DNA of 17,117 bases from a virus (lineage: Duplodnaviria > Heunggongvirae > Uroviricota > Caudoviricetes), in the IMG/VR virus record IMGVR_UViG_2548876945_000002, one strand, 5' to 3'. The notes below the pieces were generated by a model, which was given only the letters and a program-made list of their open reading frames with translations, was not told the origin of the DNA and made no database searches. Positions 975-11,461 of the stretch are shown one piece after another; position 1 is the stretch's first letter, and every line of letters starts with the position of its first letter. The position numbers were made by a program, and so were the translations under genes.

Positions 975-1511
975 GTCTTACCCCCAATAAGGGGATTTGC
1001 TCTATTTAATTAGGAATAAGGTCGATTACTGATAGAACAAATCCAGGCTACTGTGTTTAGTAATCAGATTTGTTCGTGACCGATATGCACGGGCAAAACG
1101 GCAGGAGGTTGTTAGCGCGACCTCCTGTCACCCGCTTTCACGAAGATCATGTGTAGAAGGCCGCAGCATAACTATCACTGATGAATTCAGGATAGCCAGT
1201 GGCTACGGCTCAGTTTGGGTTGTGCTGTTGCTGGGCGGCGATGACGCCTGTACGCATTTGGTGATCCGGTTCTGCTTCCGGCATTCGCTTAATTCAGCAC
1301 AACGGAAAGAGCACTGTATGTTGCCGGGCCAGATGTCGGCTGCACAGGGAGTCATTGCCGACCCACGCCCTAAACACACTCGTAAATGCGCTTAGGGTTG
1401 TCTCCCCTGGTATCCAGTTATTCCCCGGCTGGGGATACTCCGCGCGACGCTAATGCGTTTCGTCCCTCATGGACTCGTCAGGCGCGCAATGCTCTTACCT
1501 GTTGTGCAAAC

Positions 1512-1552
1512 AAAAAAGCCACCGTTGCAACTTAAGAGTCACTAACGGCAGC
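1512..1552 (-). terminator. Candidate tR'-like intrinsic terminator of the short late-leader transcript
   Basis: On the minus strand, an imperfect stem GCUGCCGUU...AACGGUGGC (two G-U pairs) is followed by U6. The sequence just after the U-tract (TTTGCACAACAGGTAAGAGCATTG) matches what follows tR' in lambda as I recall it. Confidence 0.4.
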
Positions 1553-1562
1553 TTACCCTCTA

Positions 1563-1591
1563 ATTATGGCTAAATGGCTAATTGCATGTCA
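1563..1591 (-). promoter_or_regulatory. Candidate late promoter pR' (-35 TTGACA, 17-nt spacer, -10 CATAAT) overlapping the 3' end of Q
   Basis: Minus-strand TTGACA at 1591..1586 and CATAAT at 1568..1563 with a 17-nt spacer, directly upstream of the candidate terminator. A qut site is expected here but cannot be delimited by eye. Confidence 0.45.
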
Positions 1592-2088
1592 AGGCTTTTA
1601 ACAGCAACATGCTTAACTTTCTCAACACGTTTACGCATTTTGAAAGCATTTTGCATTGGTTGGTACAAAACAAATAACGACGCTTTCAGGATGTCGTCAA
1701 TTTCATTTCTACAGGTTGCCAGTGAAGGTTTTCTCCATCCCTCACCACCACGCCCACACATCTTGCGTGGCTTTGCAGTCGCGTGATAGTAGGATGCAAT
1801 TGCTCGCTTAGATGAACCATGAGCGTAGTAGCTGAGGAGGATGCCAAAGGCTTTCTTGTCAATGTACATGACGGAATCGACGACCTGAGAAATCAACATT
1901 CCATCATCATCATTACACATTGGCCTTGTAATAACTCTTCCCGGCTCTACGCTCTCCATAAACTTCGCTATTACGCTGCTCATGCGCTTTTCCAGGCGAC
2001 CTGAATAAACCCATGCGCCCCACAGTTCAAGCCAGCCATTCAGCCACTCATGCTGTTCTTTGGTGAGGTTTAGTTCTCTTATGCCCAC
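1570..2088 (-). CDS. Q: Late antiterminator Q, 933W/phage 82-like family (not lambda-Q type), 172 aa
   Basis: Sits between ninI and pR'/S. Motifs LELWGAWV and [14 protein letters not shown]...LLSYYAHG resemble the 933W/82 Q family (LERWGAWA, ICDDDAMIICGCM as recalled). First codon is GTG at 2088..2086 and there is no in-frame ATG near the N-terminus, so the exact start is uncertain. Confidence 0.65.
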
Positions 2089-2934: not shown

Positions 2935-3326
2935 GCGGCCTCCAGTAGCTCTGTAATCATTGGCAAACTCCCGCATGTTTCAGTCACAACCAACACAAGC
3001 ATTCCACCTTTAATCGCCTGATAGCGCTTGATGCGCATATCGTCTATCTGACCGTCATCCAGCCAGAAGCCCGCACTGGTGAGTGCGTCAAAAACGGCTT
3101 TGGGCAGATTGTCCAAATCTCGTTTGCGGTTATCGGGAGGTGCTGCGTGGATGGTTATTCTGATGCGAGGTGTGATTTTGATGTCTAGCTGTTGTTGCTG
3201 GATTATTTCGATTACTTCTTTTCGGTATCTCTTCCCCCAGTCGCTGATGTAGTGGATCCCTCTTGAGTGTCGCCAATATCGGTTGTTTGAAGGAGGCCAC
3301 GGCAATTTTATTCGGTAGGTTTTCAT
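2931..3326 (-). CDS. rusA: RusA-family Holliday junction resolvase, 131 aa
   Basis: Translation MKTYRIKLPWPPSNNRYWRH...RDLDNLPKAVFDALTSAGFWLDDGQI carries the RusA signature. It occupies the position NinG/Rap has in lambda. ATGA overlap with the upstream gene. Confidence 0.85.
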   Translation of the reverse strand: MKTYRIKLPWPPSNNRYWRHSRGIHYISDWGKRYRKEVIEIIQQQQLDIKITPRIRITIHAAPPDNRKRDLDNLPKAVFDALTSAGFWLDDGQIDDMRIKRYQAIKGGMLVLVVTETCGSLPMITELLEAA

Positions 3327-3613
3327 GACTTAATCTTCCCCTCCTTCAGCAGTATCGCCTGCGTCCTGATCACGCCTTCGAGGTGGTAAAGTCTGGCGTC
3401 TTTGTTGTCGAGAATCATTGTGCGTCGGTCGATCTCCGCGTGGCAGTCACTACAAGCCCATGCACCGATCAGGTCGTCAGGCTTCATTCCAGTTCCGCAA
3501 ATTCCAGCCATCCGGTAATGTGCCAGAACTGTAGTTTCAGGATTGCCATTGCATACGCCGTAAATACGTACCTGGCATTCTCTGCCGCGCGCTTCTTTGC
3601 GTAGGTTAGCCAT
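3323..3613 (-). CDS. YbcO-like protein (DUF1364, putative Zn-binding nuclease), 96 aa
   Basis: Translation MANLRKEARGRECQVRIYGVCNGNPETTVLAHY...CSDCHAEIDRR resembles DLP12 YbcO as recalled, which also sits next to rusA. Start ATG overlaps the upstream stop as TAATG. Confidence 0.6.
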   Translation of the reverse strand: MANLRKEARGRECQVRIYGVCNGNPETTVLAHYRMAGICGTGMKPDDLIGAWACSDCHAEIDRRTMILDNKDARLYHLEGVIRTQAILLKEGKIKS

Positions 3614-9965: not shown

Positions 9966-10665
9966 GAATGAAAAAGTGCGCAAAGAATTCGCCCAGCGGC
10001 TAGCGCAAGCCTGTAAAGAAGCTGGTCTTGATGAACATGGTAGGGGAATGGCTATAGCCCGTGCCCTTTCTCTTTCGTCCAAAGGCGTTAGCAAATGGTT
10101 TAATGCTGAGTCTTTACCGCGTCAGGAAAAAATGAATGCGCTTGCGAAATTTCTAAACGTTGATGTTGTTTGGCTTCAGCACGGCACTTCGTTAAATGGA
10201 GCGAATGATGAAGATACTCTTTCATTTGTTGGCAAATTAAAAAAAGGGTTAGTGCGCGTGGTTGGTGAGGCAATTCTTGGTGTTGATGGTGCCATCGAGA
10301 TGACCGAAGAGCGCGATGGGTGGCTCAAAATTTATAGCGATGATCCAGATGCCTTTGGTCTTCGTGTGAAAGGAGACAGCATGTGGCCCAGAATAAAATC
10401 AGGAGAATATGTACTCATTGAGCCTAACACCAAAGTATTCCCGGGTGATGAGGTGTTTGTCAGAACCGTTGAAGGACACAACATGATTAAGGTTCTTGGC
10501 TATGACAGAGATGGAGAATACCAATTTACAAGCATTAACCAGGACCACAGGCCAATAACGTTGCCTTATCATCAAGTAGCAAAGGTGGAGTATGTGGCTG
10601 GTATTCTGAAGCAATCTCGCCATCTGGATGACATCGAGGCAAGGGAGTGGCTGAAAAGTTCGTGA
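9958..10665 (+). CDS. cI: CI-type repressor (N-terminal HTH, C-terminal LexA-like S24 autopeptidase domain), 235 aa
   Basis: N-terminal HTH (GMAIARALSLSSKGVSKW) and C-terminal S24 motifs (KGDSMWP). ATG at 9958 with no Shine-Dalgarno and a -10 hexamer only 7 nt upstream, suggesting a leaderless transcript as for lambda cI. Confidence 0.85.
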   Translation: MVQNEKVRKEFAQRLAQACKEAGLDEHGRGMAIARALSLSSKGVSKWFNAESLPRQEKMNALAKFLNVDVVWLQHGTSLNGANDEDTLSFVGKLKKGLVRVVGEAILGVDGAIEMTEERDGWLKIYSDDPDAFGLRVKGDSMWPRIKSGEYVLIEPNTKVFPGDEVFVRTVEGHNMIKVLGYDRDGEYQFTSINQDHRPITLPYHQVAKVEYVAGILKQSRHLDDIEAREWLKSS

Positions 10666-10933: not shown

Positions 10934-11296
10934 GTGACCCAAAACGTATTGCCAATCAACAAGAGCTTGCATGACCGAGCTGTTGATGAATTTAATCGTC
11001 TGCATGGAACAATGATTGGCGAGATTAGTGCAATGCTGAAAACAGCTAAAGTAGCGCCATTGGTGGATCTTCGTAAGAAAGATCCTACCTTTTCGAACGT
11101 TGTCGCAGAATTACGGACATTCAGAGACGTATGTAATGCTCTGCTCCCATACTTTCGTGTAGATAAGACCAGCGAAATCGCTGTCATCGATAAGTTACTT
11201 ATACTGGCTAATGACCTGGCTCAAGCCATCGATGCTGACGATCCTGACGCATTGTGCGCAGCAATAGCAGCCCTTGATGTTGAGCCTTACATTTAA
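10934..11296 (+). CDS. Hypothetical protein (120 aa) in the cI-to-pL accessory slot
   Basis: GTG start at 10934 with AAGGAG 8 nt upstream. Preceded by about 270 bp of AT-rich non-coding DNA containing promoter-like hexamers. Predicted soluble and helical. I do not recognise the sequence. Confidence 0.6.
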   Translation: MTQNVLPINKSLHDRAVDEFNRLHGTMIGEISAMLKTAKVAPLVDLRKKDPTFSNVVAELRTFRDVCNALLPYFRVDKTSEIAVIDKLLILANDLAQAIDADDPDALCAAIAALDVEPYI

Positions 11297-11311
11297 ACGA
11301 GGGGAAAAAAA

Positions 11312-11440
11312 ATGACTAAAGCGTTTGACTATACTGCCGTTAGTAAGCTTTTGGCTGAAATGCGCGGATGTGTAGAGCGCGTTCAAAATCTACGCCGCGA
11401 CTTTGAAGCTCACATCAATCATTCACAAAAAGCGGCTTGA
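11312..11440 (+). CDS. Small ORF (42 aa) following the 120-aa gene
   Basis: MTKAFDYTAVSKLLAEMRGCVERVQNLRRDFEAHINHSQKAA, found by manual translation. GAGGGG lies 7 nt upstream of the ATG. Followed by an intrinsic terminator. Confidence 0.4.
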   Translation: MTKAFDYTAVSKLLAEMRGCVERVQNLRRDFEAHINHSQKAA

Positions 11441-11461
11441 TACTTAAGTTAGATGACAGAA

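Follow-up and report, generated by a model that had tools for sequence, protein, structure and literature searches.

The stretch of DNA analysed here, hereafter the window, is the 17,117-nucleotide (nt) IMG/VR virus record IMGVR_UViG_2548876945_000002, and the element under study is an insert of about 170 nt in the late leader between the antiterminator gene Q and the holin gene S. All genes of this region lie on the − strand, and the leader is therefore read as the reverse complement. Q, found in the list of open reading frames (ORFs) at 2088–1570 (−), encodes a 172-amino-acid antiterminator of the phage 21 type, and the leader is the gap at 1569–975 (−) between Q and S. The first gene downstream of the element is S (974–651, −), an ORF whose product belongs to the lambda holin family (Pfam Phage_holin_3_1, E = 2.4e-30), and the same ORF list places the endolysin gene R at 667–191 (−).

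The antitermination module and the boundaries of the insert

The Q protein matches Pfam Phage_antitermQ (E = 1.4e-25), and its residues 1–162 match the Q chains of PDB entries 6JNX and 6P18 (E = 6e-92), which we take to be complexes of the phage 21 Q protein (Q21). In local alignments, HK75, CUS-3 and Sf6 share 97–98% DNA identity with the window in the Q gene and in the Q–pR′–terminator module as a whole, and the annotations of Sf6 and HK75 label the corresponding module phage 21-like. A preliminary description of this DNA, made from its letters, had assigned Q to the 933W/82 type; the end-to-end match to Q21 and these annotations displace that assignment. The late promoter pR′ spans 1592–1563 (−), with a −35 box TTGACA (1592–1587), an 18-nt spacer and a −10 box CATAAT (1568–1563), and matches the consensus at 11 of 12 positions. 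The site had been placed inside the last codons of Q with a 17-nt spacer. It is real and its −35 box does lie within these codons, but the spacer is one nucleotide longer and the −10 box falls just past the Q stop. The homologous site is annotated as pR′ in HK75 and described as "nearly identical to phage 21 late promoter" in Sf6. Judging from promoter spacing only, the late transcript would start near 1556.

The candidate tR′ also stood up. An intrinsic terminator lies at approximately 1554–1511 (−), where a long hairpin precedes GGCUUUUUUG (fold −21.3 kcal/mol, z = −2.8); a simple terminator scan missed it and folding recovered it, and Tr′ is annotated at the homologous position in both HK75 and Sf6. 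A Q21 homologue, a pR′ overlapping the end of Q and a promoter-proximal intrinsic terminator are all present, an arrangement that on sequence grounds makes this a phage 21-type Q antitermination module.

Alignment against lambdoid phages, the check that had been proposed for defining the modules, set boundaries at 1487 and 1317/1316. The phage 21-type module match covers 2087–1487 (−), and its end, 1517–1487 (−), also aligns with lambda 44776–44806 at 90% identity. The insert itself occupies 1486–1317 (−), about 170 nt for which lambda has no counterpart, there being 37 nt at that place; its length had been estimated at about 175 bp. From 1316 to 900 (−) the sequence follows lambda 44844–45260 at 97.4% identity, so that the leader is of the lambda type from 1316 to the S start at 975 (−). 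Together with the Q21 match, these local alignments bear out the mosaic already perceived in the preliminary description, a non-lambda Q with its own pR′ and tR′ joined to a lambda-type late leader. The lambda-like hairpin reported near 1101–1130 is there as well (1128–1101, − strand CAGGAGGU…ACCUCCUG, ~130 nt upstream of the S start), although one base of its foot differs from the form quoted.

A hammerhead motif at the start of the insert

On the transcribed strand the insert begins with CGCGC-CUGACGA-GUCC-AUGAG-GGAC-GAAA-CGC-AUUA-GCG-UC-GCGCG, a type I hammerhead motif (1486–1441, −). Stem I pairs 1486–1482 with 1445–1441 and is followed by the core CUGACGA (1481–1475); the remainder (1474–1446, −) comprises stem II (1474–1462), GAAA (1461–1458), stem III (1458–1447) and C17 (1446). 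Stems II and III are capped and stem I is open. Stem III is the hairpin ACGCTAATGCGT singled out in the preliminary description. The scissile bond is predicted between C1446 and G1445. The window copy has the complete hammerhead core, namely C3 U4 G5 A6 N7 G8 A9, G12 A13 A14, the A15.1–U16.1 pair and a non-G H17. In a permissive scan of positions 1200–1600, the Rfam model Hammerhead_1 (RF00163, clan CL00010) matched end to end at 1486–1440 (−) with every core base, and the three stems with their three-way junction were recovered by energy folding alone. Folding of the leader RNA and Rfam covariance searching, both proposed at the outset, thus recovered the hammerhead together with a closing helix, P0, described below.

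Relatives of the insert, collected as described in the next section, provided 25 distinct hammerhead sequences. Across these, the core CUGANGA…GAAA with its A15.1–U16.1 pair is invariant; H17 is C in 14, A in 10, U in 1 and never G; and the 10.1–11.1 pair is formed by G–C (23 sequences) or G•U (2). The same set contains 21 distinct stem II hairpins and 21 distinct stem III hairpins, and compensatory variants of stem I include GCGG/CCGC and GCGA/UCGC. In alignment A2 (see below), pairs changed on both sides at three of four positions in stem II, one of four in stem III and one of five in stem I. Such a pattern of variation is what would be expected under selection for an active ribozyme. On its sequence, we regard this hammerhead as an addition to an established class, found in a setting that is both new and classic.

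A match between ACGC in loop II and GCGU in the second domain of the insert (X, below) was found in 7 of 24 copies, compared with 1.75 expected, with one compensatory case (L033, where loop II ACGA accompanies UCGU in X). This weak lead may point to a tertiary contact between loop II and X; for hammerheads to cleave fast in cells, the stem I and loop II regions must touch. The recurrent loop II AGUAACGC, pairable with the GCGU that precedes GGG in X, occurs in L033, L034, L053, L117, L136 and L144. A copy in E. coli 2017.17.01CC (L009, ~2510–2681), located between divergent portal and terminase genes, carries a G-to-A change that breaks one stem I pair (GCAC versus GCGC) and may be decaying.

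A conserved double-pseudoknot domain follows the hammerhead

Downstream of the predicted cleavage site lies a domain of ~120 nt, here called X (1445–1323, −), whose fold was derived by anchor parsing and pair counts. It is built of five helices on the − strand: Ha (1438–1433/1415–1410), Hb (1429–1424/1328–1323), Hc (1406–1402/1351–1347), the hairpin Hd (1397–1368) and He (1362–1357/1340–1335). The 5′ strand of Hb lies within the loop of Ha and the 3′ strand of Hc within the loop of He, giving two pseudoknots. The GTATCC/GGATAC pair noticed in the preliminary description corresponds to Ha. All the hairpins named there are present in the letters; one of them, CCCCGGCTGGGG (CCCC…GGGG), is however no conserved pairing, its G's pairing instead with a distal CCC to form Hb.

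Pattern scans of viral and metagenome contigs yielded 24 distinct parsed copies, a chance match (L030) and a truncated copy (L037) being left out. The former is a match in coding sequence that came from a viral pattern with the wrong spacing. In all 24, a hammerhead stands directly 5′ of the invariant GCGCGGAGUAUCCC…GGGGAAUAACUGGAUACCAG, and Hb, He and Hc are each made by 7–13 different, fully complementary sequences. Conservation of the pairs was assessed in two alignments. For A2, sequences were fetched by sequence pattern only, with no structure filter: 96.4% of the alignment cells were paired, against 35–44% with slid partners; 23 pairs had changed on both sides, against 3–15; and the covariation score reached 0.363, compared with at most 0.072 for slid partners and 0.112 for shuffled alignments (0 of 500 shuffles reached the observed value). 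The unified alignment A3 holds 45 distinct units of the two orders described in the next section. Its cells were paired in 98.7% of cases against 32–44% with slid partners, a percentage inflated for He, Hb and Hc, whose complementarity was the selection filter, and its covariation score was 0.702 against at most 0.115. Because A2 is free of any structure filter, it backs these three helices independently. All six pairs of Ha, which was invariant in the first set and was not used in sequence selection, covary in A3.

Besides its helices, X has about 40 unpaired bases that are invariant across the family. The window copy retains every conserved family position, with both arms and all loops intact, which argues against one of the possibilities first raised for the insert, that it is a remnant of another element. 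The hammerhead motif and the strongly covarying double pseudoknot support another of these possibilities, a structured RNA element in the late leader; the picture is not that of a widespread, identical leader segment lacking conserved structure.

Two circular permutations of X

In four loci of very different sequence (L013, L033, L034 and L035), all helices are kept, the 3′ half of X lying upstream of the hammerhead and the 5′ half downstream. A larger family was then found with a scan built from the X 3′ half alone and filtered for He complementarity. In what proved to be the usual, or standard, order, a 3′-type half (T) is followed by a linker and a 5′-type half (F), and the unit is closed by Hd. 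The linker either bears a hammerhead or is short and lacks one; L058 and L115 have linkers of 1–3 nt, and L051 has one of 16 nt. The window has the order hammerhead, 5′-type half, capped Hd, 3′-type half, and is thus a circular permutation opened at the linker of the standard order.

The 45 distinct units divide into 28 standard (T-half/linker/F-half) and 17 permuted (F-half/Hd loop/T-half) ones. All 17 permuted units, the window included, have a hammerhead directly 5′ of X. Among the standard units, 21 have a hammerhead and 7 have no intact one according to the parser, including the degenerate cores of L063 and L067.

At one locus (L053, ~11189–11447), two adjacent X/hammerhead units are separated only by a long Hd hairpin, the second ending at the contig edge; tandem copies of this kind could give rise to the permuted order. 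The 16-nt linker of L051 (~6752–6737, −), AUCACGAGUCCGCAGG, looks like the beginning of a hammerhead (C-UG-ACGAGUCC), a likeness that points to loss of the ribozyme through a deletion in that lineage.

The P0 helix and the cargo slot after tR′

The insert is enclosed by a long helix contributed by the flanking leader. In the minimum-energy fold, the 5′ arm of P0, GCACAACAGGUAAGAGCAUUG (1507–1487, −), pairs with the 3′ arm CAGUGCUCUUUCCGUUGUGC (1316–1297, −), at which the lambda-like leader begins according to alignment and folding. Energy folding of 1508–1296 gave a P0 of 19–20 bp together with the hammerhead three-way junction (z = −4.5). Lambda forms the same hairpin (lambda 44785–44863, equivalent to 986–1064 of L005; z = −3.6), and the P0 arms accompany the element in Enterobacter phage SDFMU_EhYP and E. 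coli 2017.17.01CC. A P0 hairpin of about 20 bp directly after tR′ is in fact common to lambda, HK75 (L001, 1195–1270), CUS-3, HK629 and the window, its tip varying from 37 nt in lambda and 38 nt in HK75, CUS-3 and HK629 to the 170-nt element of the window. The length of the helix suggests a processing site of the RNase III type. We know of no description of this hairpin.

Comparison of the 37-nt lambda and 38-nt HK75 tips with the element did not reveal relics of it (best p = 0.04 in four comparisons, the others 0.5–0.9). The slot after tR′ is a known cargo site, occupied by tRNA-Asn and tRNA-Thr genes in Sf6 and by an HNH gene in HK629. In HK75 (L001, ~1360–1395), the leader downstream of the P0 hairpin contains GGAAGCCGGTTCGATTCCGGCCGCCAC, which resembles the T-arm and acceptor end of a decayed tRNA and fits a slot that formerly held tRNA genes.

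Distribution and genomic setting

The insert had been thought unique; it is found in E. coli genomes, in sequenced phages and in many viral contigs. The full insert is present in 14 of 5,426 complete E. coli genomes (0.3%), with an identical copy in E. coli CFSAN061763, and a detectable copy in 4 of 50,697 sequenced phage genomes: Enterobacter phage SDFMU_EhYP carries it at 95.5% identity, and three Pectobacterium/Dickeya phages at ~80% over exactly 1486–1319. Copies that are ~95% identical reside in unrelated phages, among them P22-like prophages, a T7-like Enterobacter phage and a prophage in which the element is near portal and terminase genes. One element-bearing prophage, whose structural genes are P22-like, has no PGAP annotation between Q and the holin gene. 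The exact X core had no match in bacterial contigs sampled at one genome per species. A looser search with a pattern from the 3′ half returned 39 matches that would have implied a spread over many bacterial phyla, and all were discarded as chance matches in GC-rich coding sequence with no other feature of X. Most of the family therefore comes from uncultured viral contigs, which differ widely in base composition, and a few members are in prophages.

In annotated relatives the element is co-oriented with the downstream gene, and in the window it lies on the sense strand between tR′ and S. A same-strand tRNA is present within 60 nt at 11 of 46 loci. Several contigs of 83–164 kb carry the permuted form between tRNA-Thr and tRNA-Gly, ending 4 nt before tRNA-Gly. 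The 112 nt that separate two tRNAs in L051 are taken up exactly by X. Elsewhere X is set tightly between co-oriented ORFs, often heading lysis, terminase or structural blocks, with no single type of block.

Comparison with known RNAs

Searched against Rfam 15 at E ≤ 10, the window, which holds X in the permuted order, gave the hammerhead as its one meaningful match and none for X. For the hammerhead-less standard copy of L051, the best hit was an unrelated human long non-coding RNA model (E = 0.41). At the gathering score, eight loci returned tRNAs and one RNase P RNA only. Specific candidates did not fit either. X is not a tRNA: ARAGORN finds none in the window, and the Rfam tRNA model matches neighbours of X elsewhere, never X. 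A fold like that of the hepatitis delta virus (HDV) ribozyme or theta, a nested double pseudoknot of P1, P1.1, P2, a P3/L3 hairpin and P4 with a catalytic C in J4/2, is excluded by spacing, with 6 nt between the 3′ strands of Hc and He and 2–4 nt between the 5′ strands of Ha and Hb, which is too little to accommodate P3/L3. Twister, pistol and hatchet disagree with X in topology, and no Rfam model of them matches it; T4 rnaC and rnaD have no sequence likeness to X. In a literature search that left most subscription journals outside its reach, so that a prior report is possible, we found neither a description of the composite hammerhead–X RNA nor any mention of hammerheads in lambdoid late leaders. 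The X fold and its ribozyme-linked permutation thus appear to be undescribed.

The nearest precedents each share part of the arrangement. Hammerheads are known in phages and prophages between the genes of polycistronic transcripts, where a part in the processing of long phage RNAs has been suggested (Perreault et al. 2011, PMC3088659). Such type I phage hammerheads (RF00163) have the same catalytic core, three-helix junction, open stem I and intergenic location; the one described here differs in being fused to, or embedded in, a second conserved fold, in scoring below the gathering score, and in having a stem I of 4–5 bp with a near-fixed sequence, because it overlaps conserved bases of X. Theta ribozymes, which are minimal HDV-like ribozymes (Kienbeck et al. 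2024, PMC10879173), share with X the position beside tRNAs in uncultured phages, a double pseudoknot and a proposed role in the maturation of RNA ends. Unlike them, X has no P3/L3 hairpin and no P1.1, matches no Rfam model including the HDV-type ones and is about twice as long, and cleavage in the composite is assigned to a separate, predicted hammerhead. T4 rnaC and rnaD, GOLLD and ROOL (PMC12286853) are likewise non-coding RNAs within or beside phage tRNA arrays, presumably freed by tRNA-processing enzymes, whereas X also occurs far from tRNAs, as in the window. GOLLD and ROOL were among the Rfam families that gave no match to X. Both are several times larger than X.

Naturally permuted RNAs include the hammerhead types I–III, the twister types and two-piece tmRNA (reviewed in PMC10085705). 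As in these, X is one fold that occurs in different 5′-to-3′ orders with its ends in a dispensable loop. Two features set it apart from them: every permuted X comes with a ribozyme expected to generate the new 5′ end, and unpermuted X can hold this ribozyme in the equivalent loop. A functional analogy only is offered by synthetic ribozyme insulators (RiboJ) and the intercistronic RNase III sites of T7, at which a leader is severed from its message at a defined base and a structured end is left. RiboJ and the T7 sites are simple hairpins without a conserved partner fold.

A proposed role in the late transcript

Starting from the motif, the fold, the family, its two orders, the strict link between the permuted order and a hammerhead, and the location between tR′ and S, all of them read directly from the sequences, we propose that the insert is probably one composite RNA of the late transcript, made of hammerhead, permuted X and P0, in which the hammerhead would cut the Q-antiterminated transcript and so make the 5′ end of X. 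In this scheme, the RNA polymerase that the phage 21-type Q has modified would start at pR′ and read through tR′; the hammerhead (1486–1441) would be transcribed first and fold; and cleavage between C1446 and G1445 would detach a leader piece of ~110 nt, comprising pR′ to tR′ and the hammerhead and terminated by a 2′,3′-cyclic phosphate. X would then begin at G1445, which would bear a 5′-hydroxyl, and be followed by the lambda-type leader and by S, R and later genes. Both the cleavage and its timing are predictions. Since the cut point is the dispensable loop, or linker, of the non-permuted relatives, the ribozyme would give the permuted copy a free end that allows it to fold as those relatives do.

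Several points weigh against this proposal. Cleavage is predicted from the motif. At 24.7 bits (E = 8e-4 in the 401-nt scan), the Hammerhead_1 match falls short of the gathering score, which is 34, and at that score Rfam gives no match across the whole window; on standard-order members, the Rfam hammerhead model gives no match at E ≤ 0.5 in 45 kb. Stem I is short, 5 bp in the window copy, so that cleavage in cells could be slow, and the loop II–X match is absent from this copy, which leaves its rate in cells uncertain. P0 could hold both products together, in which case detachment may be incomplete. X also occurs without a hammerhead, and the ribozyme is therefore not essential to the X family. 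No protein family recurs beside the X loci, the top cluster consisting of ORFs read through X itself, and the selection for complementarity in A3 counts on the same side.

As to what X does, the role that we rank first, as a possibility somewhat short of even, is that of a stable RNA module with a conserved host component as its binding partner, which processing would release or expose. This processing would be done by tRNA enzymes in tRNA arrays and by the ribozyme, perhaps with RNase III at P0/P1, elsewhere. The placement in tRNA arrays without a closing helix, together with the long closing helices seen at other loci, fits release as a stable product. The tight placement before start codons fits a role in cis, and that X protects the late mRNA as a 5′ structure has almost the same likelihood as the released or exposed module. 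X shows the hallmarks of an important RNA, with ~40 invariant unpaired bases and two pseudoknots kept by covariation. The chances appear evenly balanced that it is a new functional class of phage RNA, for whose maturation a hammerhead, embedded or leading, would be responsible; X would then be either a ribozyme with a chemistry of its own or an RNA that binds some universal host component with high affinity.

The best placed of the competing explanations, itself unlikely, would make the insert a processing and stabilising cassette acting in cis, comparable to T7 RNase III sites or synthetic ribozyme insulators but self-contained, the cut freeing the message and the knot with its 5′-hydroxyl shielding the late mRNA from 5′-end-dependent decay, with no function proper to X. 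Members often lie 3–40 nt before a start codon, between co-oriented ORFs and at the head of late, lysis or terminase blocks, one copy stands between the capsid and tail genes of a T7-like phage, and the long P0/P1 closing helices resemble processing stems. Simple protection does not, however, call for ~40 invariant unpaired bases across very different phages; moreover, the copies in tRNA arrays have no mRNA to protect, and those without a hammerhead would be unable to create the 5′-hydroxyl end.

Passenger status, allosteric control and antitermination of the put type rank below both the released RNA and the cis-protective cassette. The ~95%-identical copies in unrelated phages, the rarity of the element in E. 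coli genomes (0.3%), its slot in the known cargo site after tR′ (tRNAs in Sf6, the HNH gene in HK629) and the broken stem I of L009 could all be explained by a selfish or neutral passenger, a cassette spread by recombination and tolerated in a permissive place, of no benefit to the phage and with a hammerhead that is perhaps decaying. We consider this rather improbable: mobility is compatible with function, and the compensatory changes in every helix and the invariant core bases over many divergent copies amount to purifying selection on structure.

An allosteric ribozyme or riboswitch, in which X would sense a ligand or host factor and control hammerhead cutting and hence the processing of the late mRNA, appears less probable still. 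It would account for the hammerhead inside a loop of X in standard-order copies and for the ~40 aptamer-like invariant unpaired bases. Moreover, the 3′ strand of stem I, GCGCG, overlaps the CGCGGAG of X, which is conserved even in hammerhead-less copies, so that X folding and stem I could compete. On the other hand, X is fully conserved in the 7 of 45 units in which the parser found no intact hammerhead, the downstream genes are of mixed functional class, unlike those of the usual riboswitch, and in the window the hammerhead would be transcribed, and able to cut, before X exists.

It is very unlikely that X is an RNA-based antiterminator that binds elongating RNA polymerase and helps long late operons or untranslated tRNA arrays to escape termination, in the manner of the put RNAs of phage HK022, which have two simple stem-loops. 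X lies without exception on the strand that is transcribed, either ahead of long operons or within tRNA arrays; no neighbouring gene encodes a protein partner, and conservation is strong across phages of varied base composition. Yet Q already performs this task in the window leader, X has no likeness to put RNA in sequence or structure, and one copy is in a T7-like phage, which is expected to use its own polymerase for late genes.

Finally, that the insert encodes a small protein, or is a degraded tRNA or transposable element, can practically be dismissed. Short ORFs do overlap it (e.g. 49 amino acids at 1386–1535, +), a "hypothetical protein" is annotated there in Pappous and Taid, and the corresponding slot of Sf6 holds tRNA genes. 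Against this, changes in one helix arm are compensated in the other, the conserved core contains indels of 1–2 nt, the sole shared "protein cluster" is that of ORFs read through X, ARAGORN finds no tRNA, and both arms and all family-consensus loops are intact.

The lambda-type late leader is among the best-studied regulatory regions. A self-cleaving ribozyme directly after tR′, if confirmed, would add to its textbook picture a step of RNA processing between antitermination and the expression of the lysis genes. That one of the two gene orders is always led by a hammerhead bears on the long-open question of what bacterial and phage hammerheads are for, and the pair of standard and permuted forms would show a ribozyme, in nature, restoring the topology of an RNA whose gene has been circularly permuted. 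The window copy resides in inducible E. coli prophages and is thus amenable to standard lambda genetics; a tractable prophage of this kind would open the family, which is otherwise known from uncultured phages alone, to direct genetic study.

Other RNA genes on contigs carrying X

Two contigs of the family encode further non-coding RNAs. L051 (IMGVR_UViG_3300045837_000152) contains a complete bacterial-type RNase P RNA of class A (2968–3382, −; 266 bits) within a phage array of ~27 tRNAs, the same array that holds the hammerhead-less X between two tRNAs. L112, a phage contig that carries X with an embedded hammerhead, encodes a tmRNA at 10261–10608 (+; Rfam 89 bits).

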